This document shows, in pieces, positions 13,329 to 64,000 of a DNA stretch of 64,000 bases. Numbering within the stretch: the stretch's first letter is position 1; each line of letters opens with the position of its first letter. This DNA is from a virus: positions 100,107 through 164,106 of the IMG/VR virus record IMGVR_UViG_3300020057_000027. One strand, 5' to 3'. The position numbers and the translations under genes were made by a program. The notes beneath the pieces are model-generated. The model searched no databases. It was not told the origin of the DNA and was given only the letters and a program-made list of their open reading frames with translations.

Positions 13329-13356
13329 TTAGAGAGCTTATAAGGTTTAAAATTAT

Positions 13357-13465: not shown

Positions 13466-13545
13466 GCTTATAAGGTAGCGTTGGAAGACGAGAAAATAAC
13501 ACGAGGCGACTGTACGCGCCTACTCTAATGAAAAGTTTTTTTATG

Positions 13546-13581
13546 TTGACAGTATATGATTAATCTGGTATTATTATAATA
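13546..13581 (+). promoter_or_regulatory. sigma70-type promoter, likely leaderless transcript
   Basis: TTGACA-17 nt-TATTAT with extended TG; ATG 13581 is 7 nt after the -10. Confidence 0.75.
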
Positions 13582-14273
13582 TGGGTTGCGATATTCACAT
13601 ATATCCTGAGTGGTACTCTAAGAAAGACCAACTAGAAAGTATACCAGAAAAATCTGTTTGGATTCATTCCGCTTGTTCTGAATTTCATGTTGGTAGAAAT
13701 TACGAGCTGTTTAGTATAATGGCTCAAGTAAGAGGTGCTTCTCCATTTGGTTATTCACCAAGAGGTTTACCCGATGATCCAGCTCCTGGATTTGATGCTA
13801 GTTACAAATATAAACTAATAGTAATACCCGATGAAGAATTAAAAGAATCAGGTTCGTCGGATTTTGGACAGTCTTTTGTTGCAAAGAGTATAGCAGAAAA
13901 TTGGAAAACCTGTTTATGTTATTCAATCAAAGTATTACAAGATGCAGATCCAGAAAACAGAAAAAGAGAAGAGATCATGCATCCAGATTATCATTCTCAT
14001 TCGTGGTTGACCACAAAAGAATTATTTCACGTTAGACAGATCTATCTAAGAGAGCAGATCGAATTTAATTACTCCCAATATGATATGACAAAGAAGAAAG
14101 TTAAACCTCTTCTTAAAAAGCTTGATGATTGTCCAGACCCTATAGACCTGTTCAATATAAATTTTGGTAATTTTGAATATACTAGTCTTAATGCTTTGAT
14201 TGGTATGTTATATTCTGCTGAGAGAACTGATCCAGATACGCAAGGTAGAATAGTTTTTTGGTTTGATAGTTAA
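13581..14273 (+). CDS. conserved phage protein (MGCDIH family)
   Basis: MGCDIH...RNY.LF..MA.VR...PRGLP.D...HSHSWLT..EL...RIVFWFDS. Confidence 0.85.
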   Translation: MGCDIHIYPEWYSKKDQLESIPEKSVWIHSACSEFHVGRNYELFSIMAQVRGASPFGYSPRGLPDDPAPGFDASYKYKLIVIPDEELKESGSSDFGQSFVAKSIAENWKTCLCYSIKVLQDADPENRKREEIMHPDYHSHSWLTTKELFHVRQIYLREQIEFNYSQYDMTKKKVKPLLKKLDDCPDPIDLFNINFGNFEYTSLNALIGMLYSAERTDPDTQGRIVFWFDS

Positions 14274-14285
14274 AGGAAATATATT

Positions 14286-14570
14286 ATGTTTAAATACCCT
14301 GAATCGTTTGTTGCTAAGTGTAAAGAAGTTTATCCTGATTGGGAAGATCTCCATTATCAATTGAATCTCAATAGTCGAGCAGTTGGTAATATTCTTGAGC
14401 GTGGAGTAGGTTTCTCATTAGATGAAGAGATGATTATATCATTATTCAGAAACAAGAAAGAAACTAAAATTTTAGAAGCTGCTAAGAGAGCTAAACTTAA
14501 ACGAGATCTTTATAGAGAGTGGACAGAAGTGGTAGATACAATCATAGAGCATAACGGGCATGAGGTTTAG
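14286..14570 (+). CDS. hypothetical protein
   Basis: AAGGA RBS. Confidence 0.75.
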   Translation: MFKYPESFVAKCKEVYPDWEDLHYQLNLNSRAVGNILERGVGFSLDEEMIISLFRNKKETKILEAAKRAKLKRDLYREWTEVVDTIIEHNGHEV

Positions 14571-14571
14571 A

Positions 14572-14727
14572 GTGTCAGAAGACGAAGTGAAAGTTGTTTT
14601 TAAATGTGGTGTAGGTGAAGCACTAGCAATGATTATTTCATGGAGTCTTCATAAGTCTTTAATTTGGGCTATAGTTCATGGACTGTTTGGCTGGTTCTAC
14701 GTCATTTATTATATCATCGTAAGGTAA
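14572..14727 (+). CDS. small membrane protein (51 aa, not in track)
   Basis: GTG after GAGGT; G.G.ALAMIISWS..KSLIWAIVHGLFGWFYVIYY hydrophobic motif. Confidence 0.75.
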   Translation: MSEDEVKVVFKCGVGEALAMIISWSLHKSLIWAIVHGLFGWFYVIYYIIVR

Positions 14728-14787
14728 TATAGGTTTCTAAAACTGAACTAAATATCTCTATGATTGATAAAACATATGTAGAGATTT

Positions 14788-19490: not shown

Positions 19491-21575
19491 ATGACTCAGT
19501 TTATTGACTTATCTGGTTTAGGTATTATCTCAGAAGAAAACTGGGCTTGGGTTATTCGACCTATTGGTATTGGTCCACTATTAGTTGGTACGCCCGAACT
19601 TAATTTAACAATATTCACTCCTTCTATAGTTTCACAAGAAACTTTTGGTTATCATAGTGTTGGTAACATTACATTAAATTCTAGTATAGCTGATGCCAAC
19701 AATACGTTTGGTATTCCTAATATTAGTAATACTTCAAGTGTTCCTTTAATATCATCTCAAATATATTCTCAGCTTCCTAGTTTTGTTAGAGAAGATCATC
19801 CACATTTCATAAACTTCATGGAAGCATATTATGAATGGATGGAAAATTATAGAAATGTTCAATTTGATATAGCAAGATTAAAAACATATCAAGATGTTGA
19901 AACTAGTATTGATATTTTTACAGAACAATTCTTTAAAGAATTTTTAACTAATATACCAAGAGGTATTGTTGCTGATAAAGAAAATGTTTTAAAAAACATT
20001 AGAGAGTTCTATCGTGCTAAAGGAACAGAAAAGTCATATAAGTTCTTTTTCAGAATATTGTTTAATATAGATGTTGATTTTTATTATCCTAGAATAGACA
20101 TGTTGCGAGTGTCTGATGGTAAATGGATTCAACCAATTACATTGCGTATCAGATCTACTGTGGGTAATCCTTTTGATTTAGTCGGTAGACGAATTAGAGG
20201 ACTAAACAATAATGCTTCGGCGTTTGTTGAACAAGTACAATTCGTTCAAGAAGGTTTCTTAACTGTATATGAATTATTTTTAAATCGTTCGAGTATATCT
20301 GGTTTATTTGAAGGTGATGAAGTTATCAAAGCTGCGGATGTTGATATTGAAGGGGTAATTTATCCAATAGTAGATTCAATTAAAGTTGTGAGCGGCGGCG
20401 AAGGGTATTCAACCGGAGACCCTATATTGATTGGTGGGCCAGGCGTTGGAGCTACTGCTGTAGTTCAATCTGTTGGTAGTTTGGGTGCGATAAAGAAAGT
20501 TAAGATGACTGCTTTCGGAGCAGGATATACAAGTGCTCCACTAGTAACTGCTCCCGGAGGTACGGTAGTAGCATCATTAGAAGCAGTAATCGGCGCACAA
20601 ACTAAGTATCCCGGATTCTTTTTAAATGAAGATGGTCAAATATCCGCATCAAAATATATTCAAGACGGTAAGTATTACCAACAATTTTCTTATGTAGTAT
20701 TTGTTAATGAGTCTATAGAAAAATATAGAGACGCATTAAAGCGAATGATCCATCCTGCCGGTTTAGAGATGTTTGGTGGATTCAGATCTCAAGAATTGAT
20801 AGATGCTGGTGTAAACCTTTCTTCAAGATATGGACAGGTTGGCACTTCAATGCTTAGAATCCACGACCATTTTAAATTTGTTTGGGTGGTATTTGATATT
20901 AATAATCAACCATTGAATGTATTTGATAATGAACAGCTTGCTATACAGTGGTTAAAAGAGCTAGGAACCTTACCATACACCGAATATCTATCAACCGACT
21001 ATGTGGTGCTAGATGTAAATTTGAAAGTATTAGCTGTATTTGCTTCACAGATCGAAGCGCAAGACTGGTTGAACGATCACGAGTCTGAGTATCCAGGTAC
21101 ATTATTTCATATAAAAGAAAGAATAGACACTAGATTCAATTCTCAATATCTCCAAAGAAGAGATAGTAGACAAGTAAATCCATTTTATTTTGATCCTATA
21201 GATGCTCGTATTAAATCACAACAAACAGAGCTTATTTTAATCCACGATCTATATGAAGGTATTAATCAAGCCAAACTTGGACCTTCTTACCGTTCTATTG
21301 AGCGAGATAAATTCACATATAGACCATTTGAGAAAACCGATATTACTGGAGAGTTGAATGGTGTTAATGCTGGCTATTGGGGTATTCAAGGTGTTTTTAT
21401 ATCTCAATTTGCTAATTATCAGATAAAAGACTTTAAAGATATAACAGTAAAAGAGATGACAGAAAAACCTTGGACGAAGATAAATATAATGCCTGAACCT
21501 ATTGTTAGAAACAGTGACGGAACTAGCATTAACAGTTTAGAAAAGTTTGGAATAGCTGAAATCTCACACACTTAA
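19491..21575 (+). CDS. gp7: baseplate wedge protein, gp7-like
   Basis: QLP.FVRE.H..F..F.EAYYEW; FYRAKGT..SY..FFRILF; IQD..YYQ.FSY; HPAG..MFG; position between gp6 and gp8. Confidence 0.75.
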   Translation: MTQFIDLSGLGIISEENWAWVIRPIGIGPLLVGTPELNLTIFTPSIVSQETFGYHSVGNITLNSSIADANNTFGIPNISNTSSVPLISSQIYSQLPSFVREDHPHFINFMEAYYEWMENYRNVQFDIARLKTYQDVETSIDIFTEQFFKEFLTNIPRGIVADKENVLKNIREFYRAKGTEKSYKFFFRILFNIDVDFYYPRIDMLRVSDGKWIQPITLRIRSTVGNPFDLVGRRIRGLNNNASAFVEQVQFVQEGFLTVYELFLNRSSISGLFEGDEVIKAADVDIEGVIYPIVDSIKVVSGGEGYSTGDPILIGGPGVGATAVVQSVGSLGAIKKVKMTAFGAGYTSAPLVTAPGGTVVASLEAVIGAQTKYPGFFLNEDGQISASKYIQDGKYYQQFSYVVFVNESIEKYRDALKRMIHPAGLEMFGGFRSQELIDAGVNLSSRYGQVGTSMLRIHDHFKFVWVVFDINNQPLNVFDNEQLAIQWLKELGTLPYTEYLSTDYVVLDVNLKVLAVFASQIEAQDWLNDHESEYPGTLFHIKERIDTRFNSQYLQRRDSRQVNPFYFDPIDARIKSQQTELILIHDLYEGINQAKLGPSYRSIERDKFTYRPFEKTDITGELNGVNAGYWGIQGVFISQFANYQIKDFKDITVKEMTEKPWTKINIMPEPIVRNSDGTSINSLEKFGIAEISHT

Positions 21576-41400: not shown

Positions 41401-43395
41401 GTGAACTTCATATTCAATGCAAAATATCCAGATATTACTTCCACTGTAACTCGTTATCAAAAAGTTGCAGAGTTTAGAGGTTATGATCCTAAAATAAATG
41501 TTGGTATAACTGATTCTGGTTATAGAATTGGTATAGCAGTTGAGCATTACTTCAATACAGCAAATTTTGCTGGAACCCTTGCTGAACAGTATGGTACATG
41601 GTCGAGAGTTGGACTCCATACTCTTAATCCAACCGGCACAATATCTAATTCATATGCACTATATGCAGAAACTTTAAATTTTGGTATAGCTGGCTCTATC
41701 ACTAATGCTTGGGGTATCTTTCAAGCATCAAACGGTGGCGGGAATACTAAGAACTATTTTGAGGGTCGTGTTGGTATTGGTGTTGCGCCTGCGACCGGAT
41801 TCTTTCTCGATGTTGCTGGAGCATTACAAGTTGCCGGTAACATTCAGTACACTCCTTCTATATTTTCTATTGCTGCAAATACTGCTGATGGTGCAGACAA
41901 TAAGAAAATTATAATTGGTGGTGGCGGTGCTGCTGGATTTGCACAAGTAGGACGTGGCGCATATCTAGAACTTGGCGGCAACGAAAGTAATTCTGGTGGT
42001 GCAACACTTTCAACTGGTGACGCTGGCGGACATCTATATCTCTACACTCGTAACAGTGCTGCTGATATTTACTTTAATGCAGGAGCAATCGGAAACTGGA
42101 AAGCATCTGGTGCAGACGGCGACCTAGTATTCAGTGGTTCAACTTCAAGAATTCATGCTGATACTGCTGATGGCGCAGACACAAAAAGACTATTACTTTG
42201 TGGTGGTGGAATTCAAGGTGATTCTAGAGGCGGTACAATATATCTCTACGGAAATGAGCACGGAAGCACCGGTTCAGTAGAAATATTAGCAGGCGGTGCA
42301 GGTTCAATCTATTTTGAAACTCTAAATGCTGTTCAGTGGCAAGTTCAAAATGCTGGACATTTAGTACCTGGCTCAAATAATACAAAAGATATTGGTAATT
42401 CTAGCTTAGGTATACGCGACATTTACTTGCGCGATCTTTTAGTTAGAGGTGCAATCACTGGCACTGCAACTAACACACTTAATATCACAACTGGTACTGT
42501 TGATGGCACAGACAACATGAGATTAGAAATATCTGGTGGTGGTGATATTGGTTCTTCTCGTGGAGCTTATATTTCTCTTTTTGGTAATGAAGAAGCTAAT
42601 ACGGGAAGAATAGATCTTGTTGCCGGTAACGTTTCTGGTGGACATATTACTATATCAACTGCCGGAGCAGAGAGATGGAGAATAATAAACTCATCAAATT
42701 CTAACTTACAGTTCAGCACAACAAACGGTTATATTTTCGCTACTACTTCTGATGGCTCGGACAGTGCTAGACTTATTCTATCGGGTGGCGGCAACGTTTT
42801 AGATACTGCTAGAGGCGGTTACATTACTATCAATGGTAATGAACATGCTGGACTTGGTGGTATTCAAATACAATCTGGAATTGGTACGGCTGGTGTTGGT
42901 ATTAACATTCAAGTTAATAGCACTACCGGAGAACTAAATCTTGGCACTAATGCTACAACAAGATTAGCTATAGATGCTAATGGTAGAACACAACATAGAG
43001 CATTTACTGGCTACACACCTTCAGGTAAATTTGAAATTCCCGTAGTAGCAAATACAACTAATGCGACTACAGCTAATCTTTATACTTTAACATTAGCAGA
43101 TAATACTACCTACATATTCACTGTAACTCTTGGCGGAAGATTTAATAGCACTACAGCCAAAGGTATTGGTGGAAAACTTAAGTTCACTGTCTATAGAAAC
43201 AATGCTGGAGCTGCTGTTATTGCTTCAGACTTGGGAGGAAGAATTAAAGAAATAGAAACCTATGGTTCTCCGGGATATGATTTTGATGTAGATGTTTCAA
43301 GTAATGATATAAGAATCAGAATTACTGGAGCGGCGGCAGAAACAGTTTCTTGGATTGGTAATATAGAATACTTAGCGGTTTCAACGGCAACATAA
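38476..43395 (+). CDS. long modular tail fibre/spike with nine DGAD...GGG...RGA.I.L.GNE modules
   Basis: repeats visible in the translation; late promoter at 38448. Confidence 0.85.
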   Translation: MARIRGIGQIDRNTNLVSDQLIGVESGTLDTLISTDGTQVRFVKEGTGALAYFESNKLLWTSSAGLTHVVGTNSVDGADTRTLLLSSSDSANAARGAFITLAGNEASVNPSSIFLTSGNATNSLISINATGSNGTIQLHSSNILRLTLTSGGSLEYNNNMTIHAASVDGADNQRIVINGGGNTGGIDPARGAGLQLSGNEESNPGLAQIFSGDAVGSKIQFFTPGNYPIRFWTNSTQRWDIDGSGHLVPASASAYNFGSASSPVNNVYATSIGLFAASSFSIFTNNINRWQVNSTGSFIPGASNTYDIGTDTSRVSRIYAQNELRVDAISKADADGVMSFASGTGALPYIKLQGTTGNKITAGTSDGADNTYVKLAGGGDVGSSRGATIELYGNEAPSSNNGKVLIQGGQDANGTIQLQTNNASAGINLTTGGNSANITLEGNSGGAKWLYVANDGELEFTGTTTGFIGTTTSDGADNASLYLSAGGGGAGTNASLPTRTGSLTLRGNENAFGGQVFLQGGAVASGKIRLQTNHATPTIDIEANTLVTWSFNSTGQLVQNATNGDNIIINRNGKGIFHGNNAMDLIFGDSTLGAFIVASGSTVSSEMLISTGPTVSGAALYLRAQGATAPILLQAGGATTRWSVLSSGHYVPFVGSTYDIGTTSLRVRNLYVDNIIGGAGGGSLSTLANDTFLNGRNFANSADVGLIKLSVADDTTISSASAKKIKLMNIAGSAYVGTFDYVNQSLTLAATAGVSRLIQTSATIDSRWTLDVANSRSIVGNTTSHDLYFNTTNLNRWYIDTTGRLAEDPTNGNGILLQNPTSGIEYNSASGDLYFGSIQSNDLRFYTNNSNRWRIKNTSGNLEQDVTNGGDLVFNKSSGIIRQGTVDATDTNSISLVGGGAEATSRGSYIRVSGNEHADLGKVIIQSGAVAGADIRMDVGSNANIYQLSIGNTPVDQNSGTLRTFTTRDRPTVDGVNFIFNAKYPDITSTVTRYQKVAEFRGYDPKINVGITDSGYRIGIAVEHYFNTANFAGTLAEQYGTWSRVGLHTLNPTGTISNSYALYAETLNFGIAGSITNAWGIFQASNGGGNTKNYFEGRVGIGVAPATGFFLDVAGALQVAGNIQYTPSIFSIAANTADGADNKKIIIGGGGAAGFAQVGRGAYLELGGNESNSGGATLSTGDAGGHLYLYTRNSAADIYFNAGAIGNWKASGADGDLVFSGSTSRIHADTADGADTKRLLLCGGGIQGDSRGGTIYLYGNEHGSTGSVEILAGGAGSIYFETLNAVQWQVQNAGHLVPGSNNTKDIGNSSLGIRDIYLRDLLVRGAITGTATNTLNITTGTVDGTDNMRLEISGGGDIGSSRGAYISLFGNEEANTGRIDLVAGNVSGGHITISTAGAERWRIINSSNSNLQFSTTNGYIFATTSDGSDSARLILSGGGNVLDTARGGYITINGNEHAGLGGIQIQSGIGTAGVGINIQVNSTTGELNLGTNATTRLAIDANGRTQHRAFTGYTPSGKFEIPVVANTTNATTANLYTLTLADNTTYIFTVTLGGRFNSTTAKGIGGKLKFTVYRNNAGAAVIASDLGGRIKEIETYGSPGYDFDVDVSSNDIRIRITGAAAETVSWIGNIEYLAVSTAT

Positions 43396-46487: not shown

Positions 46488-47345
46488 GTGGGAACCAATC
46501 GTTACTTCAATCTATTTAATCCGCGATCAGAACAAAATCTGGTTGACGATCTCAATCGTGAGGCCATACAAATACATGGCATAGATTGTGTGTACCTTCC
46601 AAGATCAAACCAAAAAATAGATCTAGTATTAGGTGAAGATGTTCTCTCTAAATTTGATGACGTATATGATATAGAAGTGTACATTAAAAACGTAGATGGC
46701 TTTGAAGGTCAAGGAACTTTAATGAACAAGTTCGGGATTGATATCAAAGATCAGATCACTTTAACTATTTCACGCACAAGATTTAACGATGTAGTAGGAA
46801 CAGAATTAGAAAGACCAAGAGAAGGTGATTTAATTTACTTTCCTCTAAACAATGCACTATTAGAAATTAGATATGTAGAACATGAAAGTGTATTTTATAA
46901 TCTTGGCGAAAGATATGTTTACGAATTAAAATGTGAACAGTATGCTTTCTCACATGAAGAAGTTAAAACTGGAGTTGATGCAATTGATGAAATTGCTGAT
47001 ATAGCGGCATCAAGTATATTCTTAAAACTTGGAGTTGGTGTTGGTACTTTTCAACAAGGCGAAATTGTTTATCAAGGTTTAGATCTATTAGAAGCAGATG
47101 CAAAAGCTACTGTTATTCAAGCAATCTTTCCTGCTGGACAACTTCAAGTTAAAGATATTTTTGGTGTGTTTGATCCTACTAACGGCCCAGTTAAAGGTGT
47201 TAAAAGTGCCGCTTCATATTCTCTAACATCTCTTAATACTCAAGCTATTAGTGATCCATTAGCAGAGAATGTTCCTATTCAGACAGAGAGTGATTCTATT
47301 ATAGATTTCACTGAGAACAATCCATTTTCTGAGGATGACTTCTAA
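46488..47345 (+). CDS. gp14: neck protein
   Basis: EQ.LV.DL..E.IQ..G.D..YLPR; RP.EGDLIYFPL; DF.E.NPF. Confidence 0.95.
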   Translation: MGTNRYFNLFNPRSEQNLVDDLNREAIQIHGIDCVYLPRSNQKIDLVLGEDVLSKFDDVYDIEVYIKNVDGFEGQGTLMNKFGIDIKDQITLTISRTRFNDVVGTELERPREGDLIYFPLNNALLEIRYVEHESVFYNLGERYVYELKCEQYAFSHEEVKTGVDAIDEIADIAASSIFLKLGVGVGTFQQGEIVYQGLDLLEADAKATVIQAIFPAGQLQVKDIFGVFDPTNGPVKGVKSAASYSLTSLNTQAISDPLAENVPIQTESDSIIDFTENNPFSEDDF

Positions 47346-48238
47346 TGTTTGGCAATATATTCTACCATAGAACAATGAGAAAAGTTGTTTCAGTGTTTGG
47401 TTCACTGTTCAATGATATCTCTATTGTAAGAAGAGACGCACAAGGTAAAGAGATCAAGCGTATTAAAGTCCCTTTGGCTTACGGTCCAAAAGAAAGATAC
47501 TTATCAAGAACATCTAAAGAGCCAGATTTCAATCAAGGTTATACAATAGAACTTCCACGTTTAGCTTTTCAAATTGTTTCATTCAATTATGATGGAGCAA
47601 GAAAACTAAACACAATGCATAGAAATAAAAAGGCTATTGCAGGCGATGGTTCACATGTGAACAGACAGTACAATCCAGTGTCGTACAAGCTCGGCCTAGA
47701 GCTTTACGTGCTTGCTAAGTACATAGATGATGCTAACCAGATCATAGAACAAATACTTCCTTGGTTCACTCCTGACTATACTGTAACTATTAAAGCTATA
47801 CCAGAAGTAAATCTTATTGATGACGTTCCAATCACTCTCCAAGCTGTTTCTATGGCTGATAACTATGAAGAAGATTGGCTAACAAGAAGAGATATTATTT
47901 GGACTCTAAATTTTGAAGTTAAGACTTTATTCTATGGGCCAGTAAAACCAGAAGATGTTATTACAAAAATACAAACAGATATTCTTGTTGGGCCTATTGG
48001 AAATTCTGTTCAAGATCAAATAGCAAGAAACGCAACACCTAGATCGGCACGACATTTAATTGAAGCTCTTCCTGGAGAAACTTTTGAAGATGATTTTGGA
48101 TTCAGTGAAAGCTATACTGAATATACAGACAATAAGAAGTTTAATCCTGAGACTGGATTAGATGAAGACATTGTATTAAAAATAAAAACTGAAATTTTAC
48201 ATACTGGCGAGCAATTTGGGAAACCAAAAATTATTTAA
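47345..48238 (+). CDS. gp15: tail sheath terminator
   Basis: MFG..FYH...RK.V..FG.LFN; VPLAYGPK; LPR.AF; QI.EQILP.F.P. Confidence 0.95.
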   Translation: MFGNIFYHRTMRKVVSVFGSLFNDISIVRRDAQGKEIKRIKVPLAYGPKERYLSRTSKEPDFNQGYTIELPRLAFQIVSFNYDGARKLNTMHRNKKAIAGDGSHVNRQYNPVSYKLGLELYVLAKYIDDANQIIEQILPWFTPDYTVTIKAIPEVNLIDDVPITLQAVSMADNYEEDWLTRRDIIWTLNFEVKTLFYGPVKPEDVITKIQTDILVGPIGNSVQDQIARNATPRSARHLIEALPGETFEDDFGFSESYTEYTDNKKFNPETGLDEDIVLKIKTEILHTGEQFGKPKII

Positions 48239-53480: not shown

Positions 53481-55589
53481 ATGGATTTTAAATTATTCGG
53501 TTATACATTAAAAAAGACTGAACTAGAAAAAGCTAAAGAAGATGCTAAGTCTTTTGTACCGCCTACTAATGAAGATGGCGCAGTAACCGTTGAAGGTGTT
53601 GGTGCCTACGGAGCCTTCATTGACCTTGAAGGCTCTTCTAAAAACGAATTTGAATTAATCACACGCTATAGAGAAATGGCACTTCTACCTGAAGTAGATA
53701 GTGCTATAGACGACATTGTTAATGAAGCAATTGTTGTTAATGGACAAAGAGATGCCGTAGAAATTAATCTCAGCAATATCAAAGAAAAGAAAGAAGTTAA
53801 AGAAGCAATCTATGAAGAGTTTGATAATATTCTTACTCTATTAAATTGGAATCAAAACTCATACGACCTATTCAGAAAATGGTATATAGACGGTAGACTG
53901 TTTTTTCACGTTATACTAGACGATCAAAAAAAGAAAAATGGGATCTTAGAACTTCGATATATTGACCCAAGACAAATTCGTAAAGTTAGAGAAATAGAAA
54001 GAGATGTTTCAGAACAGGGTGTTGAGCTATTAAAAGTTGCCGATGAATATTACGTGTTCAACCAAAGAGGACTTCTTCGTGGTGGTTCTGGTAATACCAC
54101 ATACACTGGCGCATCTACTACCGTAGAAGGTATTAAAATTTCTACTGATTCAATTCTATTTGTTCATTCTGGTATTGTAGATAAATTTTCTTCTACCATT
54201 CTTTCTAATCTACATAAAGCATTAAAAGGAATGAATCAACTAAAAATGATGGAAGATGCGATGGTTATCTATCGTATTGCTCGTGCTCCAGAAAGAAGAA
54301 TTTTCTATGTTGATGTTGGTAATCTTCCTAAATCAAAAGCTGATGCATATCTTAGAGATATCATGCAAAGATATCGTAACAAGATGGTCTACAATATCGA
54401 AACTGGAGAAGTCAAAGACGATAGACGAACACTTTCTATGCTTGAAGACTTTTGGTTGCCGAGGAGAGAGGGATGCCTTTCATTGAATACGCAGATAGAT
54501 TTACTAGATGGCCGTCAAGTTCCTTTAAGTGATTTAATATTAGAATATGATCAAGGCAAACAAAACTGGACATACTCTGTTTCACCCGAAGGAGAAATAG
54601 TTCCTGGCCTGATATCTTGGGCTGGCGTTACACGCAAAAATACTGATGTGCTTAAAATAACTCTCGACAACGGCGAAGAAGTTATAGCAACACCAGATCA
54701 CAAATTTATTTTGCGAGACGGCACTAAAATAGAAGCAAGAGATCTGAAACCACAAGATTCGTTAATGCCTTTCTATACGAGAGAGAAAGATAAACAAATA
54801 TTAAGTAAAGCAGAATACTTAGAAAAATGGTCTCCTGGCTTGGCTAAAATGCAAGCGATGAATGAAGAAAAGAAACTCCATAACCATAAAGTCGTTTCAA
54901 TAGAAATACTTTCTGAAAGAATGGATGTCGGAACCTTAACAATTGATAAAGACCACAGATATCACGATTATCACAACTTTGCTCTATCGGCTGGAATCTT
55001 TGTGATGAACAGTCAGGGCACTTCTATTGATACACTTCCAGGTGGTGAAAATCTTGGTGAGATGGCAGACGTTGAATACTTTCAGAAGAAATTATATAAA
55101 GCACTTAATGTTCCAGTATCAAGATTAGATCCAGAAAATGGTTTCCAATTAGGACGTGCTGCTGAAATTACTCGTGATGAATTGAAGTTTACTAAATTCA
55201 TCTATAGACAAAGAATTAGATTCTCACACCTATTCATTGAACTATTAGAAAAGCAACTAACTATAAAGGGTATTGTAAACCGAGATGAATGGGAGAATAT
55301 AAAAGAGCAAGTAACTTTTGATTGGGCTAACGATAATCACTTTACTGAATTGAAAGACTCTGAAATTCTTAGAAACAGACTTGAGCTTATTCAATTGATA
55401 GATCCATACACACAAAAATACTTCTCAGTTAAGTGGATTAGAAAGAACGTACTAAAACAGACTGAGGATGAACAGAAAACTGTGGATAAAGACATTGTAG
55501 CTGAAAAAGACGTTTACCCTGATCCGGCTCCCGCTCCGGGAGAAGATGGGGTTAAAATGACTAATTTTGATGATGGTAACGAATTTTAA
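53481..55589 (+). CDS. gp20: portal protein containing an intein
   Basis: FR.WY.DGR; MEDA.VIYR..RAPERRIFYVDVGNLP..KA; LEDFWLPRREG; ITRDE.KF. Confidence 0.97.
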   Translation: MDFKLFGYTLKKTELEKAKEDAKSFVPPTNEDGAVTVEGVGAYGAFIDLEGSSKNEFELITRYREMALLPEVDSAIDDIVNEAIVVNGQRDAVEINLSNIKEKKEVKEAIYEEFDNILTLLNWNQNSYDLFRKWYIDGRLFFHVILDDQKKKNGILELRYIDPRQIRKVREIERDVSEQGVELLKVADEYYVFNQRGLLRGGSGNTTYTGASTTVEGIKISTDSILFVHSGIVDKFSSTILSNLHKALKGMNQLKMMEDAMVIYRIARAPERRIFYVDVGNLPKSKADAYLRDIMQRYRNKMVYNIETGEVKDDRRTLSMLEDFWLPRREGCLSLNTQIDLLDGRQVPLSDLILEYDQGKQNWTYSVSPEGEIVPGLISWAGVTRKNTDVLKITLDNGEEVIATPDHKFILRDGTKIEARDLKPQDSLMPFYTREKDKQILSKAEYLEKWSPGLAKMQAMNEEKKLHNHKVVSIEILSERMDVGTLTIDKDHRYHDYHNFALSAGIFVMNSQGTSIDTLPGGENLGEMADVEYFQKKLYKALNVPVSRLDPENGFQLGRAAEITRDELKFTKFIYRQRIRFSHLFIELLEKQLTIKGIVNRDEWENIKEQVTFDWANDNHFTELKDSEILRNRLELIQLIDPYTQKYFSVKWIRKNVLKQTEDEQKTVDKDIVAEKDVYPDPAPAPGEDGVKMTNFDDGNEF
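54474..55010 (+). mobile_element. mini-intein (179 aa) in the portal
   Basis: begins CLSLNT (block A), ATPDHKF (block B TxxH), ends YHNFALSAGIFVMN before Ser; removal restores REG-SQGT..TLPGG and a 523-aa portal; no LAGLIDADG motifs. Confidence 0.93.
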
Positions 55590-55786: not shown

Positions 55787-56452
55787 ATGAAACTCATTAC
55801 AGAAGTAAATGAAAATTTAGCGTACAAGGTTATTACCGAAGAAAAGTCTGGCGGTAAAAACTACTTCATTGAAGGTATCTTTCTCCAAGCAGAAATGAAG
55901 AACCGCAATGGAAGAATGTACCCTAAAGAACTTCTACAAAATGAAGTTAAAAGATATATTAAAGAGTACGTAGAAAAGAATCGTGCTTTTGGTGAATTGG
56001 GACATCCAGATGGTCCGACTATCAATCTTGATCGTGTATCGCATATGATTACCGAATTAAGAGAAGATGGTGATAATTTTATTGGTAAAGCTAAAATATT
56101 AGTTGACTTGCCTAACGGTAAAATCGTTAAGGCTTTTATTGATGCTGGTGCTTCACTTGGCGTATCTTCTCGTGGTATGGGTTCGTTAAGAACCGAAGGC
56201 CACGATATACAGATAGTTCAAGATGATTTTTATCTTGTAACGGCTGGTGACATTGTTGCCGACCCTTCTGCTCCTGATGCTTTCGTAAATGGCATCATGG
56301 AAGGTAAAGAATGGGTTTGGGATAATGGGCTCATCAAAGAACGTACCATTGCCGGCTACAAGAAAGAAATATCTAAGGCTCCTGCTAAGAAGATTCGTGA
56401 AGTAAGCGTAAAAGCTTTTGAAGACTTCATGAAACGACTTAGCAGAGGATAA
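55787..56452 (+). CDS. gp21: prohead protease
   Basis: MKLITE; IEGIFLQ....NRNGR.YP; GELGHP; GVSSRG.GS; DIVADPSAP.AFV.GIMEG.EW. Confidence 0.97.
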   Translation: MKLITEVNENLAYKVITEEKSGGKNYFIEGIFLQAEMKNRNGRMYPKELLQNEVKRYIKEYVEKNRAFGELGHPDGPTINLDRVSHMITELREDGDNFIGKAKILVDLPNGKIVKAFIDAGASLGVSSRGMGSLRTEGHDIQIVQDDFYLVTAGDIVADPSAPDAFVNGIMEGKEWVWDNGLIKERTIAGYKKEISKAPAKKIREVSVKAFEDFMKRLSRG

Positions 56453-57028
56453 ATGTTCACGCATAAAGATTTAATAAGAACATTAAAGACTGAATTACTT
56501 ACTGACCCCGAACATTTAGGGTATAGTAGATATTTTGCTTATCCGGCGCAGATCGCTGCTTTAATGAATCAACCACAAAGACAATCAGAAATACAATCTA
56601 CTAGTATAACTAAAGCATTAGAATATCTAACTTGGCTTGAGGAATTAAAGGTAGTTAATAATGTACAGCTTGTAAAAGAACTAGTTGAGTTTTTAATATA
56701 TCATGGAGCAGGAAATGCAGTTAATAATACTGTTGCTACCGAAGAAAGTGATGGATTGTTAAGAATTCTTAAATTACTAGGCATAGATTTTTTTCTAAAT
56801 ATGTTTGGTATATCATCATATTGGGGTGATAAAGAAAAGCTTAAGATGGCTGTTTTAGATGTTTTGGAACACGCTTCAAAAATAGGACAGAAAAAGTATT
56901 CTGTTCATATAAGTAATAAAATTATTTCATGTAGAATTCTTAGATTATTTAGTGGTGTTGCTGGGGCGCCAAACGCCGTGACTGAAAAAGATATTATTGA
57001 TACAAAACATTACGCTAATATAATATAG
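56453..57028 (+). CDS. hypothetical protein, first gene of the post-gp21 insertion
   Basis: GAGGA RBS, coupled to gp21; L..EL..DP..LGY...IAAL.N. Confidence 0.8.
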   Translation: MFTHKDLIRTLKTELLTDPEHLGYSRYFAYPAQIAALMNQPQRQSEIQSTSITKALEYLTWLEELKVVNNVQLVKELVEFLIYHGAGNAVNNTVATEESDGLLRILKLLGIDFFLNMFGISSYWGDKEKLKMAVLDVLEHASKIGQKKYSVHISNKIISCRILRLFSGVAGAPNAVTEKDIIDTKHYANII

Positions 57029-57038: not shown

Positions 57039-57521
57039 ATGGCTTCAACATTAAACATTACATATTCAGCTTCAGCAAGTATAACTTGTACTCTTGCTTC
57101 TTTAGCTACTGCTTCAGCAAGATCTTGCGATGCTGTAGATAACGGCACAAACAAATATATTGATGCTATACTATATCTTGCTATACCTTTGGTTACGGGC
57201 ACTCCGGCCTCAGATAAAGCTATCAACGTTTGGTTCTATGGTTCAGAAGATGGAACAAACTATACCGATAACTCTTTAGGTACTAATGCTGCTGTTACAT
57301 TAAGAGTACCAACAAATTTGCGTGGACCTTTTATCATAACAACTCCAACTGCTGGTGCTTTAACCTATAAAGCAACTATAGGTTCTGTTGCTTCTTTCTT
57401 TGGTGGCATACTTCCTAGAAAATGGGGATTTGTTATTGAGAATAGAACTAACTTAGCTTTCAATGCAACTGAAGGAAATTTAATAAAGACTTTTACTGGT
57501 ATAACATATACGACGACTTAA
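57039..57521 (+). CDS. Thr/Ala-rich beta-sandwich virion protein
   Basis: AGGA RBS; composition and strand pattern of a structural or decoration protein. Confidence 0.75.
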   Translation: MASTLNITYSASASITCTLASLATASARSCDAVDNGTNKYIDAILYLAIPLVTGTPASDKAINVWFYGSEDGTNYTDNSLGTNAAVTLRVPTNLRGPFIITTPTAGALTYKATIGSVASFFGGILPRKWGFVIENRTNLAFNATEGNLIKTFTGITYTTT

Positions 57522-57551: not shown

Positions 57552-60500
57552 ATGTATAATTTCCGACGTAGTAAATTAATAGCCCAACCAATGCAGCCAA
57601 TAGTGGACGGAAACCACTATTTGAGCAAAGGCCTCGTGGGTTATTGGCCGTGTTCTGTAGATACTGCTACTGGTGGTACAGGAGCATTAAAAGACTATTC
57701 AGGTTATGGTAATCACGGCACAATAAGTAATACTTCTATAACTTATTCAACTACTCCTGGCCCTCTTAATGCTGTTGGTCTTAATTTCCCAAGCATAAAA
57801 CAATTTGTATCATTTACGACTCCGGCTGGACTTCCTGCTTATCCAACTGGAGCAAACCAATTAACTATATCATTCTGGATTAAATCAAATTCAGCAACTC
57901 TTAAAGATATTGTTCAATATAATGCTGGGACTACTAGCGGAACAAATTTATTAATACAAACTTCTAGCGATAATATACAAATAGATTTCGGTTCGGCTGG
58001 ACATATTTGGGGAACGGCGGCGAGTACCATATCGCAAAACTACATGTCTCATGTGGTTATAGTTGTGCCACCTGGAGCTACCTTAACTTCAGATATAAAA
58101 ATTTACATTAATGGTATTGACGTTGCAGTATCAACTTTATCTGGAACGGCTGCTACCTTAAATCTATCTGCTGCCGATTGGCTATTTGGTGAAAGAGGAC
58201 CTTCTCAAGCTAATAAAGCAGATCAAATTTTATCTGAAGTTCGTTTATATAATAGAGCATTACAAAGTTCAGAAGTTAGAGAATTATATTCCGACCCTTG
58301 GTCTGGACTTATTAATCCTGCTAATGAAATATTATATACTTTTGCTGGTGTCCCACCGACACAAAACATACAACCAACAGGAATATCTTCTGCTGAAGCA
58401 TTTGGTTCACATAAAATAAACCAAAATATTAATACGGTGGGAAATATATCTTCTACTCAAGCTTTCGGCACTCATCAACTCAACCAAAAAATTCATAATG
58501 TTGGAGCGATAGTAAGCGCAGAAGCTTTCGGGACACACAAACTTAATCACGTAATTAAACCTATAGCCATAACATCACAAGAAGTTTTTGGTATACCAAA
58601 ATTACATTTGGTTATCTATACTACTGGCCCACCAATTCTATCGGCCGAAACATTTGGAACTCATAAGCTAAATCAAAAAATACATCTTGTTGGTAATATT
58701 GCTTCTGTTGAAGCCTTTGGTTCTCACAAACTAAACCAAAGAATTTCTCCTACATCTATTACAACACTAGAAGCTTTTGGTTCTCACAAACTAAATCTAA
58801 AAATACATAATGCTGGCAACATTGCTAGTGCTGAAGCTTTCGGAACTCCAACAATAGTTCCTGGAACCGCTTACGTTCTTCCATCTGGTATTATAAGCCA
58901 AGAGGCTTTTGGTTTACATGAACTTGATTTAGAAATAGAAGAGCCTGGAGTTCCTAGTGCGGAAGCATTTGGTTTACACCAGATCAACCAAAAAATCAAA
59001 CCATCTTCTATAGATTCATTAGAAGCTTTTGGTTCACATAAAGTAAATCTTAATATTCATGTAATTGGTATTACATCTGATGAAGCTTTTGGTACTCACA
59101 TAATAGAAGTTGGAGATGTTATTATCTCTACTTCTTCTATAAACTCACTAGAAGCATTTGGTTCTCATAAAGTAAATCTTAATATTGTTCCTTCTTCTAT
59201 TGATTCATTAGAAGGTGTTGGACTACCACACATAAAACATCATATTAAGCCAGCATCAATTGATAGTGCTGAAACTTTTGGTACACACCAATTAAATCTT
59301 TATATTGTTCCATCTTCTATTAATAGTAATGAAGCTTTTGGCAGTCATACCTTAACAACTGGCAATGTAAATATATTACCATCTTCTATTGATTCATTAG
59401 AAGTATTTGGTGTACACAATATAGTACATAAGATTAAACCATCTTCTATTGATTCAGAAGAAGCTTTTGGTTTGCATCAATTAAATCTTACTATCTTCCC
59501 GTTGGGTATTCTATCTCAAGAATATGTCAATGAAGCTCCTGGAGTTGAATATGAAATAGAACCTCCATCTATTAATAGTGCAGAAGATTTTGGTTTCCCA
59601 ACTATAACTTCTATTGTATCTATTCAAGTAACTTCTATTAATAGTGCCGAAACTTTTGGTTTACATAAAGTAAATCAAAAAATTCATGCTCAAAGTATTA
59701 CAAGTCAAGAAGCTTTTGGTTTACATAAGTTTAGTTACATAATATATCCAGATCACGTAAACAGTGCTGAAGCTTTTGGTTCACCTATTATACTTTCTGT
59801 TGTTTACGTACAACCATCTTCTATAGACTCACTAGAAGCTTTTGGTTCACATTCATTACATCTTAGAATATTCCCACAAGCAATAAACACTTCGGAAGCT
59901 TTTGGTTCACATTCATTATCGGCTGTTATATACCCATCTTCTATTAACAGTGAAGAAGCATTTGGCACACATCAATTAAATCTTTATGTTGTTCCTTCTT
60001 CTATTGATTCTACTGAAACATTTGGTTCACATACTGTAACACCTGGAACGGCTTACGTTCTTCCATCTGGTATTGTTAGCCAAGAAGCTTTTGGTTTACA
60101 TGAACTTGATTTAGAAATAGAAGAGCCTGGAGTTCCTAGTGCTGAAGCATTTGGCACACATCAAATTAATCAAAAGATTAAACCTAGTTCAGTAGACAGT
60201 GATGAAGCTTTCGGAACTACAATGTTGGTTCACGAGATTGAGCCAAGCTCAATTGATAGTGAAGAAGCATTTGGCACTCCAACAATAGTAAGTGGAAATA
60301 TTAATATCTATCCATCTTCTATATCTTCATTAGAATCTTTTGGTACACATAAAGTAAATCAAAAGATTCATGCTGAAAGTATTACAAGCCAAGAAACTTT
60401 TGGTAATCTAAAAATTAATTTTGTTATCTTTGCTCAAGATATCAATACTCAAGAAACTGTAAATGAACCTACATTACATTTAAAGATTTTCATTAATGAG

Positions 60501-63500
60501 ATATTTTCATCTGAAGCTTTTGGTTCACATGTAATACAACCTGGAGTTGTTTACATTCAACCAAGTTCAATAACTTCATTAGAAGCCTTTGGCTCTCATA
60601 AAGTAAATCATCTTATCAATATCACAAGTATTGATTCGGAAGAAGCTTTTGGTACACATCTATTAATTCTTTATGTTGTTCCTTCTTCAATAACTTCTGA
60701 AGAAGCTTTCGGAACTCCAACACTAACTTCTATAGCTTACATTCAACCAAGTTCAATTGATAGTGAAGAGTATATTGGAACTCATAGTGTTGTACAAGTA
60801 ATACAACCTAATGCTATTGATACAGAAGAATTTGTAAATGATGTAAATGTAGTTCAAGTAATACAACCACTATCAATTAACTCACAAGAAATGTTTGGTG
60901 GTCTGGATGATATTGAACAAAACATTTATCCACCAAGTATTAATTCGGCTGAATCGGTTGGTTTCCCAATAGTACAACCTGGAGCTGTATACATTCAACC
61001 GACTTCTATTGATTCGGAAGAAGCTTTTGGTATAGCACAACTTTCTATTTCTATAATAGTAAATGCTATTACTACCGAAGAAGTATTCGGATATCATATC
61101 GTTCATCAAAATATTCACACAACATCTATCTTTGAAGATGAATATGGAACACCACAAGTAAATCTAAACATTCATGTTCTTGGTATAGCATCATTAGAAG
61201 CTTTCGGTTCACACCAATTAAATTACATCATCTATCCTATTGGTGTTACTTCTGATGAAGCTTTCGGAACTACAATGTTGGTTCATGAGATTGAACCAAG
61301 TTCAATCAATAGTAATGAAGCATTTGGCACTCCAACATTAACATCTAATGCTTATATTAATCCATCTTCTATAACATCATTAGAAGCATTTGGTACACAC
61401 CAAGTAAACTTAAATGTTCATGTTCTTGGTATAGCATCATTAGAAGAATTTGGTACTCACCAATTAAATCTTACTATCTTCCCAGTAAGTATTACTAGTG
61501 AAGAAGCATTTGGCTCACACCAATTAAATCTTTATATTGTTCCATCTTCTATTGATTCAGAAGAATACATTGGCTCACATAGTTTAGTTCAAGTAATACA
61601 ACCATCTTCTATAACATCATTAGAAGCTTTCGGTACTCATCAATTAAATCTTACTATCTTTACTCAAGCTATTGGTAGTGATGAAGCTTTTGGTTTACAT
61701 CAATTAAATCATGTTATTAATATTACATCAATTGATAGCGAAGAAGCTTTTGGCACTCATCAAGTAAATCTAAACATTCATGTTCTTGGTATAGCTAGTG
61801 AAGAGGCATTTGACACTCCAACATTAACATCTAATGCTTATATTAATCCATCTTCAATTGATAGTGAAGAGTATATTGGAACACACTTATTTGTTCTTGA
61901 AATTGAAAATGGTAATATTTCTTCAGAAGAAGCATTTGGTACTCACCAATTAAATCTTACTATCTTCCCAGTAAGTATTACTAGTGATGAAGCTTTTGGT
62001 TCACATAGTATAGTTCAAATAATACAACCTAATAGTATTGATAGTGAAGAGGCTTTCGGAACTCATCAATTAAACCAAAACATATACACTCAAGCTATTG
62101 GAACAGAAGAAGCATTTGGCACACACCAAGTAAACTTGAATATTCATGTTCTTGGTATTGCTAGTGAAGAGGCTTTCGGAACTCATCAATTAAATCAAAA
62201 TGTATATTCTGTTGGTATTACTTCTGATGAAAACTTTGGTTCACATCAATTAAATCTTACTATCTTCCCACAAGATATTAACACCGATGAAGCTTTCGGA
62301 ACTCCAAGTCTAGTTCAAGTAATACAACCATCTTCTATAACATCATTAGAAGCTTTCGGTACTCATCAATTAAACTTGAAGATCTTCATTGATACTATTA
62401 ACAGTGATGAAGCATTTGGTACTCCTGATCTAACTGCCGCGTATTTAATATACCCATCTTCTATAGATTCACTAGAAGCTTTTGGTTCACATCAATTAAA
62501 CTTGAAGATCTTCATTGATACTATTAACAGTGATGAAGCATTTGGTACTCATCAATTAAATCTTCATATAACAACTATTGGTATTACCACTGGAGAAATC
62601 TTTGGTACACCACAACTAAACTTAGTAATATATCCATTTGATATACCATCACAAGAAGTTTTTGGTTCACATCAATTAAATGTAAACATTCTTCCTGTCG
62701 GTGTTGTTACCGAAGAGTATATTGGCACACATCAAATTGATCTTGAAATTGAGAATGGTAATGTTGATTCTGGAGAAGAATTCGGCACACATCAAATCAA
62801 TCAAACAATATTATATGCTGGTGATATAGTAAGTAATGAAACATTTGGTGTACAACCTCTAATAATAATATATGTTGATCCTCTTGCTATAGACTCAGAA
62901 GAGTATATCGGCACACATCAATTAAATTACATCATCTATCCTGTTGCTATAGATTCAGAAGAATTTGTAAATGGTGGCGATGAACAGATCATACATGAGG
63001 TTGAGCCTGTAAGTATTCCTTCAGAAGAGTATATTGGCTCACATAGTCTAGTTCAAGTAATACAACCTAATACTATTGGTTCTGAAGAAGCCTTCGGAAC
63101 TCATATGCTAGTTCACGAAATTGAACCTGTAAGTATTCCTTCGGAAGAAGCTTTTGGTTTACCTTATTTAACTTCAAGTATAACTTTAACTGGTATACCT
63201 TCTGATGAAGCTTTCGGAACTCATCAACTTAACCTTACTATCTTCCCTGTAAGTATTGATAGTGAAGAAGTTGTAAACCAAGTTAATGTAGTTCAAGTAA
63301 TACAACCTACAGAAATAACTTCGGAAGAAGCTTTTGGTAATCATACGCTATCACAAAGAATATACTTGGTTGGTATATTGAGTGAAGAGTATATTGGAAA
63401 CTTAAAAGTAAATCAAGAGTTCCAAGATGGTTTCATACCAAGTGCTGAAGCCTTCGGAACACATCAACTAAACTTCACAATATTCCCACAAGATGTTAAT

Positions 63501-64000
63501 AGTGATGAATCTTTTGGTAATGCTAATATTAATTACATAATAAAACCTTTTGGTATTTCTTCTGCTGAAAATGTAAATTCACCTAAAGTAAATCTACACA
63601 TTCACTTAACTGGAATCAATAGTGATGAATTGTTTGGTACTCATACACTAGTATCTACTATTCATGTTCTATCTATTAACAGTGATGAAGCTTTTGGTTT
63701 ACATCAAGTTAATCTGAATATACACACTATTAGTATTGATAGTGAAGAAGCATTTGGAACTCATCAATTAAATCTTACTATTTTCCCTGTACAAATTGAT
63801 AGTGAAGAATACATTGGCGCACATAGTCTTGTTCAAATAATACAACCAACTTCAATAGACAGTGAAGAAGCATTTGGCACACATCATCTTAAGCATATTA
63901 TTAAACCAGTTTCAATTAATTCACAAGAAGCTTTTGGTACTCATACAATTGTATCTACTATTCATGTTCTATCTATTGATAGCGAAGAATACATTGGCAC
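57552..64000 (+). CDS. giant repeat protein (>2149 aa, runs off the window): N-terminal LamG/ConA-like domain plus about 90 tandem 20-aa repeats
   Basis: absent from the ORF track because no stop is reached; ATG 57552 and the last codons (63960) share a frame; GLVGYWP...DYSGYGNHGT, LTISFWIK, IKIYING, SEVRLYNRAL...EV..LY are LamG hallmarks. Confidence 0.92.
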   Translation, partial: MYNFRRSKLIAQPMQPIVDGNHYLSKGLVGYWPCSVDTATGGTGALKDYSGYGNHGTISNTSITYSTTPGPLNAVGLNFPSIKQFVSFTTPAGLPAYPTGANQLTISFWIKSNSATLKDIVQYNAGTTSGTNLLIQTSSDNIQIDFGSAGHIWGTAASTISQNYMSHVVIVVPPGATLTSDIKIYINGIDVAVSTLSGTAATLNLSAADWLFGERGPSQANKADQILSEVRLYNRALQSSEVRELYSDPWSGLINPANEILYTFAGVPPTQNIQPTGISSAEAFGSHKINQNINTVGNISSTQAFGTHQLNQKIHNVGAIVSAEAFGTHKLNHVIKPIAITSQEVFGIPKLHLVIYTTGPPILSAETFGTHKLNQKIHLVGNIASVEAFGSHKLNQRISPTSITTLEAFGSHKLNLKIHNAGNIASAEAFGTPTIVPGTAYVLPSGIISQEAFGLHELDLEIEEPGVPSAEAFGLHQINQKIKPSSIDSLEAFGSHKVNLNIHVIGITSDEAFGTHIIEVGDVIISTSSINSLEAFGSHKVNLNIVPSSIDSLEGVGLPHIKHHIKPASIDSAETFGTHQLNLYIVPSSINSNEAFGSHTLTTGNVNILPSSIDSLEVFGVHNIVHKIKPSSIDSEEAFGLHQLNLTIFPLGILSQEYVNEAPGVEYEIEPPSINSAEDFGFPTITSIVSIQVTSINSAETFGLHKVNQKIHAQSITSQEAFGLHKFSYIIYPDHVNSAEAFGSPIILSVVYVQPSSIDSLEAFGSHSLHLRIFPQAINTSEAFGSHSLSAVIYPSSINSEEAFGTHQLNLYVVPSSIDSTETFGSHTVTPGTAYVLPSGIVSQEAFGLHELDLEIEEPGVPSAEAFGTHQINQKIKPSSVDSDEAFGTTMLVHEIEPSSIDSEEAFGTPTIVSGNINIYPSSISSLESFGTHKVNQKIHAESITSQETFGNLKINFVIFAQDINTQETVNEPTLHLKIFINEIFSSEAFGSHVIQPGVVYIQPSSITSLEAFGSHKVNHLINITSIDSEEAFGTHLLILYVVPSSITSEEAFGTPTLTSIAYIQPSSIDSEEYIGTHSVVQVIQPNAIDTEEFVNDVNVVQVIQPLSINSQEMFGGLDDIEQNIYPPSINSAESVGFPIVQPGAVYIQPTSIDSEEAFGIAQLSISIIVNAITTEEVFGYHIVHQNIHTTSIFEDEYGTPQVNLNIHVLGIASLEAFGSHQLNYIIYPIGVTSDEAFGTTMLVHEIEPSSINSNEAFGTPTLTSNAYINPSSITSLEAFGTHQVNLNVHVLGIASLEEFGTHQLNLTIFPVSITSEEAFGSHQLNLYIVPSSIDSEEYIGSHSLVQVIQPSSITSLEAFGTHQLNLTIFTQAIGSDEAFGLHQLNHVINITSIDSEEAFGTHQVNLNIHVLGIASEEAFDTPTLTSNAYINPSSIDSEEYIGTHLFVLEIENGNISSEEAFGTHQLNLTIFPVSITSDEAFGSHSIVQIIQPNSIDSEEAFGTHQLNQNIYTQAIGTEEAFGTHQVNLNIHVLGIASEEAFGTHQLNQNVYSVGITSDENFGSHQLNLTIFPQDINTDEAFGTPSLVQVIQPSSITSLEAFGTHQLNLKIFIDTINSDEAFGTPDLTAAYLIYPSSIDSLEAFGSHQLNLKIFIDTINSDEAFGTHQLNLHITTIGITTGEIFGTPQLNLVIYPFDIPSQEVFGSHQLNVNILPVGVVTEEYIGTHQIDLEIENGNVDSGEEFGTHQINQTILYAGDIVSNETFGVQPLIIIYVDPLAIDSEEYIGTHQLNYIIYPVAIDSEEFVNGGDEQIIHEVEPVSIPSEEYIGSHSLVQVIQPNTIGSEEAFGTHMLVHEIEPVSIPSEEAFGLPYLTSSITLTGIPSDEAFGTHQLNLTIFPVSIDSEEVVNQVNVVQVIQPTEITSEEAFGNHTLSQRIYLVGILSEEYIGNLKVNQEFQDGFIPSAEAFGTHQLNFTIFPQDVNSDESFGNANINYIIKPFGISSAENVNSPKVNLHIHLTGINSDELFGTHTLVSTIHVLSINSDEAFGLHQVNLNIHTISIDSEEAFGTHQLNLTIFPVQIDSEEYIGAHSLVQIIQPTSIDSEEAFGTHHLKHIIKPVSINSQEAFGTHTIVSTIHVLSIDSEEYIG
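58366..64000 (+). repeat. coding tandem repeat, mostly 60-nt period, consensus I.PSSI.S.EAFG.HQLNL.
   Basis: GAAGC(T/A)TT(T/C)GG recurs about every 60 nt with interspersed 63-69-nt units. Confidence 0.95.

Follow-up and report, generated by a model that had tools for sequence, protein, structure and literature searches.

What would a very long, lectin-headed repeat protein be doing among the head genes of a T4-like phage? The question is raised by the final 64 kb of the IMG/VR viral record IMGVR_UViG_3300020057_000027 (164,106 bp, rated complete), that is, positions 100,107 to 164,106, a stretch of 64,000 nucleotides that was analyzed as a whole and is referred to below as the window. At its end begins an open reading frame (ORF) for a protein, here called the giant, that consists of a LamG-type head, about a hundred copies of a 20-residue unit, and a short tail. 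Accessory fibers decide the first capture of the host by phages, and the short tail wing of phage Bxb1 is the only solved example of the cassette family to which we assign the giant and its neighbors. We regard it as likely that the giant is an accessory virion fiber of this cassette type; on balance, and with less assurance, we favor the more specific reading that it is the rope-type backbone of such a fiber, encoded in a mobile cassette of the Bxb1-wing kind.

The giant ORF starts with ATG and, in the ORF listing, is free of stop codons for all 2,149 codons up to the end of the window. It is open there solely because the 164-kb record was cut at this point. The last and first 106 bp of the record are identical, and reading across this overlap on a circular unit of 164,000 bp leads, with both the frame and the repeat register maintained, to a stop codon at record position 1067, followed by gp22 and gp23. 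An initial inspection of the window without database searches (the sequence-only reading) had proposed the long frame, and it is real: it closes at 2,469 residues and has its own Shine–Dalgarno sequence (AGGAG, ∼13 nt upstream of the start). A canonical T4 late promoter (TATAAATA) was not found directly upstream, the nearest one being at 50551, before gp18, and no enrichment of sigma-70-like or terminator-like sites was found.

The head matches Pfam PF13385, Laminin_G_3 (ConA-like lectin/glucanase), with 55.8 bits against a curated cut-off of 27.6 and over profile positions 15 to 150 of 151, in agreement with the N-terminal LamG/ConA-like domain of ∼260 residues described in the sequence-only reading. 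The region also matches phrog_8510 (virion structural protein). The domain is of a sugar-binding type and is predicted to bind glycans. A hidden Markov model (HMM) of the unit finds ∼103 units between residues 273 and 2445, or ∼106 when the spacing is used to allow for gaps, rather than the ∼90 estimated from length in the sequence-only reading. Positions E10, F12, and G13 are nearly invariant. The spacing is 20 residues in 72 cases, 21 in nine, 22 in nine, and 23 in seven. The longer, Pro/Gly-containing units had been described as occasional and as possible hinges; instead, every fourth unit has 23 residues between residues 419 and 1064, where the autocorrelation at lag 83 (0.252) nearly equals that at lag 20 (0.266), and we set the hinge role aside because the long units form a regular super-repeat, a pattern that provides no evidence for hinges. 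Within the final 300 residues the units are degenerate, and a distinct tail is present; a short C-terminal tail with the motif VVNH...RNYKYN is conserved in T4-like relatives. A Pfam CdiI_4 match within the repeats (E 3e-4, below the cut-off) is regarded as spurious.

Table 1. Coordinates (window numbering, 64,000 nt) of the giant ORF, its parts, the preceding genes, and the unit-like tags on tail proteins. A dot marks a feature without strand.
Feature	Position	Strand	Remarks
Giant ORF	57552..64000	+	2,149 codons in the window, then record positions 107-1067; total 2,469 aa
N-terminal head, aa 1-272	57552..58367	+	Laminin_G_3 at aa 100-242, nt 57849-58277
Repeat array within the window, aa 273-2149	58368..63998	+	consensus I.PSSI.S.EAFG.H.LNL.
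83-aa super-repeat zone, aa 419-1064	58806..60743	+	20+20+20+23 aa; every fourth unit 23 aa
Uniform 20-aa zone, aa 1269-2156 across the junction	61356..63998	+	holds both 64-bp exact repeats
Terminal direct repeat, 106 bp	63895..64000	.	identical to record positions 1-106; inside the repeat array
gp21 prohead protease	55787..56452	+	Peptidase_S77, E 2e-37; upstream boundary of the slot
orf191	56453..57028	+	first base directly follows the gp21 stop codon; of the relatives, only L095 conserves it
orf160	57039..57521	+	small partner protein; viral family without Pfam match
gp15 C-terminal extension, ∼20 aa	48170..48235	+	reads as one unit (...ILHTGEQFGKPKII)
gp7-like protein, N-terminal unit-like motifs	19512..19730	+	e.g. 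IFTPSIVSQETFGYHSV
gp7-like protein, C-terminal weaker unit, last 17 residues	21522-21572		

The main clue to function comes from the neighboring genes. Reading downstream, one passes TerL, gp18, gp19, the intein-containing gp20, gp21, orf191, orf160, and the giant, followed after the wrap-around by orf135, orf118, the gp22 scaffold, and the gp23 major capsid protein; the genes are co-directional and tightly packed within the late structural block. The gene orf135 starts 15 nt after the stop codon of the giant, and its product belongs to PHROG 644, annotated as of unknown function. A profile built from 35 homologues of this protein matches PDB entry 9d93, “Tail wing arm, gp31” of Bxb1, with an E-value of 2.2e-26, and the two proteins share about 45 to 50% identity over 98 residues. 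Homologues of orf135 (58–90% identity) were found in 125 IMG/VR stretches. The neighborhood count covered 80 loci, and in 37 of them, most of which are not T4-like, an ORF with the 20-residue repeat adjoins orf135. Among cultured phages the gene is present in 445 records, 397 of them from mycobacteriophages. The tail gene cluster of Cosmo, for example, closes with gp45, which has five units, and directly after it gp46, the orf135 homologue. Both the SxEAFG core of the unit and orf135 are conserved from actinophages through to this marine-type myovirus. Variants of the gp31-like family (P0141-P0222 and P0105-P0140 surveyed) carry an N-terminal extension of ∼155 residues or two internal insertions, some annotated as E1_FCCH, and one protein (P0103) is a natural tandem duplication. 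We found no paper on a gp31-type cassette outside mycobacteriophages.

The orf160 product is well folded according to its atlas model (predicted template modeling score 0.89), and the gene occurs in 289 viral stretches, where a gene for a protein of 240 to 1,300 residues, often LamG-headed, always follows within 0 to 20 nt; only 8 of 79 orf160 loci carry the present 20-residue repeat. The orf118 product shows weak matches to GP4 gp77, a fiber–tail adaptor, both in Pfam (PF23148, E 1.6e-4, 22.6 bits, below the cut-off of 27) and by hhalign (E 4.3e-4, probability 34%, 86 columns). Profiles of orf160 and orf118 found no relative in the PDB. The four genes orf160, the giant, orf135, and orf118 form a cassette that moves among unrelated phages and is found again in this slot of related T4-like contigs. 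An insertion into the head gene cluster had been suggested at the outset; the giant does lie between gp21 and gp22, and it does so as a member of this cassette and not as a lone gene.

The state of the slot was compared among relatives. The gp23 protein is at most 59% identical to its homologues in Stenotrophomonas phage DLP_6, Melnitz, HTVC008M, and cyanophages. In Melnitz, gp21, gp22, and gp23 are contiguous, in HTVC008M the slot holds one unrelated small ORF, and an orf135 homologue was found in neither. The head cluster of the present genome is interrupted, as first proposed, because gp21 lies upstream of the cassette and gp22 and gp23 downstream of it, Melnitz is contiguous, and the cassette has no counterpart in Melnitz or HTVC008M. 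Six T4-like contigs, the present genome included, have the cassette between gp21 and gp22. Genome G001 (IMGVR_UViG_3300019487_000003, comprising L012, L101, and L118) encodes a protein of 1,291 residues with the same type of LamG head as the giant and 37 units; L095 has a LamG head and at least 12 units; L022 has a repeat protein of at least 700 residues; L028 has a right-handed β-helix head and then a repeat ORF of 330 residues; and L014, the closest relative by core genes, has only an 86-residue ORF with two to three units and the tail. All six retain the C-terminal tail motif, orf135, and orf118. Since the tail is kept while the heads differ, the C terminus is the constant end of the protein within this lineage and the N-terminal head the exchangeable one.

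Two observations on these relatives may be added. The G001 record (167.8 kb) likewise has terminal repeats, and its cut falls within the orf160 homologue, immediately upstream of the repeat gene, so that in both assemblies the break lies in the cassette or beside it. In L028 (2701-6155), the ORF for the right-handed β-helix (826 residues, depolymerase-like) overlaps the 330-residue repeat ORF by 19 nt, and the two may represent a single gene, divided by a frameshift or connected by a programmed shift.

The 20-residue repeat had not been recognized as a named family in the sequence-only reading, and a wider search led to the same result. No Pfam family matched the repeat in a scan of the giant, no relative was found in the PDB with a 480-residue repeat block or a three-unit profile, and no paper describing the repeat was found. 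The only family matched is PHROG 13352, “minor tail protein” (E 8.8e-103 over nine stretches at residues 301-950; E 6e-27 for the C-terminal 354 residues). An exhaustive search over 1.84 billion representatives gave 1,966 clusters with the repeat at E ≤ 1e-3 and 274 at E ≤ 1e-30. When counted with one HMM in 222 homologues, the number of units per protein has a median of 17 and a maximum of 41, compared with 103 in the giant, and the array is therefore 2.5 times longer than any other found. The polarity of the giant, with the nonrepeat part at the N terminus, then repeats and a short tail, is seen in 183 of the 222 homologues. Head types in the repeat family vary widely and include LamG, β-helix, TIG, He_PIG, F5/8C, CBM4_9, and fn3 domains; one homologue (P0020) is headed by a DD-carboxypeptidase. 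With the N-terminal 300 residues of the giant as query, no viral contig was found.

Mycobacteriophage proteins of PHROG 13352 (for example, gp45 of Cosmo and Wildcat, gp94 of RedRaider77, and Mycobacterium abscessus prophage proteins) have the same 20-residue unit as the giant, with 26 to 41% identity in tblastn, and in both cases a gp31-like gene follows directly. They differ from the giant in having only about five units, which in Cosmo gp45 are N-terminal and accompanied by a C-terminal globular part, and in their actinobacterial hosts; none of them has been characterized.

The comparison with Bxb1 provides the closest link to a known structure. According to PMC12646305, which cites Freeman et al. 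2025 (Cell) for the tail wing, the base of the wing is gp30, a DD-carboxypeptidase that binds the tail spike, and gp31 and gp33 (the brush) bind gp30; the wing is located at the tail tip, and the region that encodes it (genes 30-35) is described there as nonessential. PDB entry 9d93 contains three gp30, six gp31, and three gp33 chains, i.e., two gp31 per base. As in the cassette studied here, the gp31-like gene of Bxb1 directly follows a gene for a large protein with a surface-active head. Both systems also have the marks of accessory parts, the wing genes being nonessential and the cassette missing from Melnitz and HTVC008M. There are also differences. The head of gp30 combines fn3 and DD-carboxypeptidase domains where the giant has LamG, and the giant has no peptidase domain and no similarity to gp30; Bxb1 is a siphovirus and the present phage a T4-like myovirus, in which no Gly-rich, gp33-like brush was matched; and the giant has ∼106 units and a place in the head-gene block, whereas Bxb1 has no recognizable unit. 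We file the giant as a protein that works like the rope or base of an accessory fiber and that is related to the Bxb1 wing through gp31.

A second comparison concerns the chain-like fibers of podophages GP4, VP1, and A1002, in which a rope protein carries tandem docking sites (PMC13730344). Each site binds a dimer of a fiber protein of ∼140 to 170 residues by β-sheet augmentation (PMC13730344). The A1002 rope, gp39, consists of an N-terminal Ig-like tip, ∼268 rope residues with 11 dimers, and a C-terminal anchor, with ∼24 residues and ∼27 Å per site (PMC13730344). The giant resembles the A1002 rope in its layout, with an N-terminal head, tandem units at a period of 20 to 23 residues, and a tail at the C-terminal end, and, as in A1002 and GP4, the gene for a small partner is adjacent. 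The partner is dimeric in chain-like fibers (GP4, PDB 8JOU), and in Bxb1 two gp31 chains accompany each gp30. Known ropes carry 5 to 11 dimers compared with ∼100 units in the giant, and the rope sequences are unrelated; GP4 gp79, by guess the rope protein, is Gly/Ala-rich. We do not count the giant among the members of the gp80 chain-like fiber family, since orf135 is not detectably related to GP4 gp80; a search of this genome and of Melnitz-3 with a gp80 profile gave no match. Within Fromanvirus, the gene after the last minor tail protein is gp31-like in Bxb1 and GP4-gp80-like (gene 33) in Keziacharles14. Homologues of GP4 gp80 occur in 412 mycobacteriophage records.

T4 fibritin (wac) whiskers and other neck or collar fibers of myoviruses could be a functional analogue, as dispensable, neck-anchored accessory fibers on a T4-type virion. 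Parallels to it are that gp15 of the present phage carries a unit-like tag and that orf118 is collar- or adaptor-like. Fibritin differs in being a trimeric coiled coil with an N-terminal anchor, and hence in polarity, in its gene location, and in lacking any sequence or repeat similarity.

The cassette context points to an accessory fiber whose repeats, instead of forming a bare shaft, may offer docking sites to a partner. In the mechanism that we propose, the variable LamG/ConA-type head would be the distal, glycan-binding end, and the lineage-specific C-terminal tail would be the virion-proximal anchor, probably aided by the Gp77-like adaptor orf118 and by the unit-like tags on gp15 (neck) and on the gp7-like baseplate protein. 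The ∼106 units would act as tandem sites, each binding an orf135 dimer by β-strand augmentation, and the product would be a composite chain-like fiber with a length of ∼0.3 μm if each site spans ∼27 Å as in A1002. Such a fiber may serve for a reversible first contact with the surface polysaccharide of the host, and it would be dispensable and fast-evolving in length and head type. That the units are docking sites for orf135 seems to us close to an even question. A broader version, which we put forward tentatively, holds that the 20-residue unit is a universal, portable docking motif for gp31-like dimers, of which the giant would string ∼100 into a lectin-tipped filament of that length.

One tag is the extension at the end of the gp15 gene (47345-48238), which reads as a single unit and has no counterpart in gp15 of G001, Melnitz, or HTVC008M. 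At the N terminus of the gp7-like baseplate wedge protein (19491-21575), about four unit-like motifs were detected (best independent E-value 0.003), in addition to the weaker one at the C terminus. No shaft can be built from one unit, yet one unit can dock, and we count the tags among the points in favor of docking. The docking model would explain the parallel conservation of unit and orf135, the single-unit tags, and the 86-residue mini-version in L014.

The best surviving alternative is a self-standing shaft, in which the units fold alone into a rigid, lectin-tipped fiber and orf135 is only a joint at the anchoring end. The shaft could be a two- or three-sided β-solenoid, with ∼0.48 nm per unit and ∼50 nm in all, or a trimeric β-structure. 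Most phage fiber repeats are self-assembling shafts, the strand–turn–strand hydrophobic pattern of the unit with its conserved Gly and Pro is typical of solenoid rungs, and Bxb1 has only two gp31 per wing. AlphaFold2 was run on eight units, and both models, although of low confidence, show a regular all-β pattern with one long strand per unit. Their predicted local distance difference test scores (pLDDT) are too low for the fold to be trusted, at 49 when the alignment had 12 rows and 57.5 when it had 27. A Foldseek search against the PDB gave no match at E ≤ 0.001, the top rows being of β-solenoid and amyloid types with template modeling scores of at most 0.2, and the comparison with classical trimeric fibers and spikes (T4 gp12 and gp34-37) gave neither a PDB sequence match nor a Foldseek match. 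A three-copy prediction of the eight-unit block scored 0.00, from which no verdict was drawn, and it was used neither for nor against a trimer. The sequence-only reading had proposed a very long β-structured filament; the long repeat of all-β type stands, whereas the self-standing filament is not confirmed by models with pLDDT values of 49 to 57. The conservation of the unit across very distant phages, in parallel with orf135, is unusually high, gp15 and the gp7-like protein carry isolated units in places that leave no room for a shaft, and a mini-version with two to three units exists. Taken together, we consider a self-standing shaft a rather unlikely explanation.

Several points weigh against the docking rope that we favor. 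Homologues of gp30 and gp33 were not found in this genome (an empty search being weak evidence), and no recognizable unit was found in Bxb1 gp30, gp31, or gp33. Comparison of orf135 with GP4 gp80 by hhalign gave a probability of 0.2%, or 0.4% with a seven-member gp80 profile, and the match of orf135 to Pfam Gp80 (PF23140) has an E-value of 0.024, below the cut-off. Full occupancy would require ∼212 copies of orf135 per giant chain, which is a heavy load. Both the incorporation of the giant into the virion and the binding of orf135 to the units are inferred. The gene is located in the head-gene block, next to an orf160 that provides a weak, feature-based lead to the Bbp16 cement family. Finally, a segment of 726 bp in the array lies between two exact 64-bp repeats, and the array length is therefore to be taken with some caution.

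The head-gene location suggests another explanation, namely that the giant decorates the capsid, with orf160 or orf135 attaching it to the gp23 lattice or to a vertex. The gene does stand between gp21 and gp22, among the head morphogenesis genes, and the nearest family-bearing atlas cluster of orf160 is Bbp16, the capsid cement of BPP-1 (score 0.91, 21% of members), which we treat as a lead only. On the other hand, gp31, the only solved homologue, sits on the tail tip; the mycobacteriophage pair lies at the end of the tail gene cluster; and the unit-like tags are found on the tail proteins gp15 and gp7-like, with no unit found on any head protein of this genome. For a mobile cassette, moreover, gene position is a weak guide. 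A capsid fiber is thus improbable in our view.

The structure of the array also has to be considered with regard to assembly. The units are ∼60 to 70% alike at the DNA level, and the longest exact repeat inside the array, 64 bp, occurs in two copies (at 61585 and 62311). The 106-mer of the overlap is unique within the array, its next best match being 71/106. The gene can therefore be assembled, although the unit count is somewhat uncertain. That the giant is no functional part of the virion at all, either because its array length is an assembly artifact, as the two contig ends inside the array, the frame preserved by any unit–unit join, the 19 repeated 55-mers, and the exact 64-bp pair might suggest, or because it is a nonstructural adhesin made in the infected cell, is very improbable given the unique overlap and divergent units, the continuation of frame, register, and conserved C-terminal tail past the junction, the independent arrays of 37 and more than 19 units in the same slot of relatives, and the position in the late structural block with a Shine–Dalgarno sequence of its own.

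The repeat is widespread, with ∼2,000 protein clusters, is not described in the papers found, and is now tied to the gp31-like “arm” family; the cassette type is placed in a T4-like myovirus lineage whose cultured relatives checked, Melnitz and HTVC008M, lack it. This case stands out by the T4-like lineage that carries the cassette, by the fixed slot between gp21 and gp22, by the unit-like tags on two tail proteins (gp15 and gp7-like), and by an array longer than any other found. A fixed slot with ∼30-fold variation in array length and swapped heads forms a natural series for the evolution of fiber length and specificity. If the docking reading is true, unit sockets would link the Bxb1 wings with the chain-like fibers of podophages and offer a modular scaffold for the engineering of adsorption. 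The filament would then exceed every solved chain-like fiber in length by an order of magnitude and would be the first on a T4-type myovirus, and the single units on gp15 and the gp7-like protein would be extra sockets. More generally, many phage families would use such a plug-and-socket system to bolt on accessory fibers of adjustable length.

Other features were observed elsewhere in this genome. The portal gene gp20 (window positions 53481-55589, 702 residues) is interrupted by an intein (Pfam Intein_splicing, residues 342-509), and a UvsW helicase with a Hint/LAGLIDADG intein is encoded at 8235-10778 of L009 (record positions 1-15000). A gene resembling GIY-YIG homing endonucleases directly follows gp23, at 4806-5552 of the same segment. 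Two more very large ORFs are present among the baseplate and tail-fiber genes of the window, at 23388-30416 (2,342 residues) and 38476-43395 (1,639 residues).

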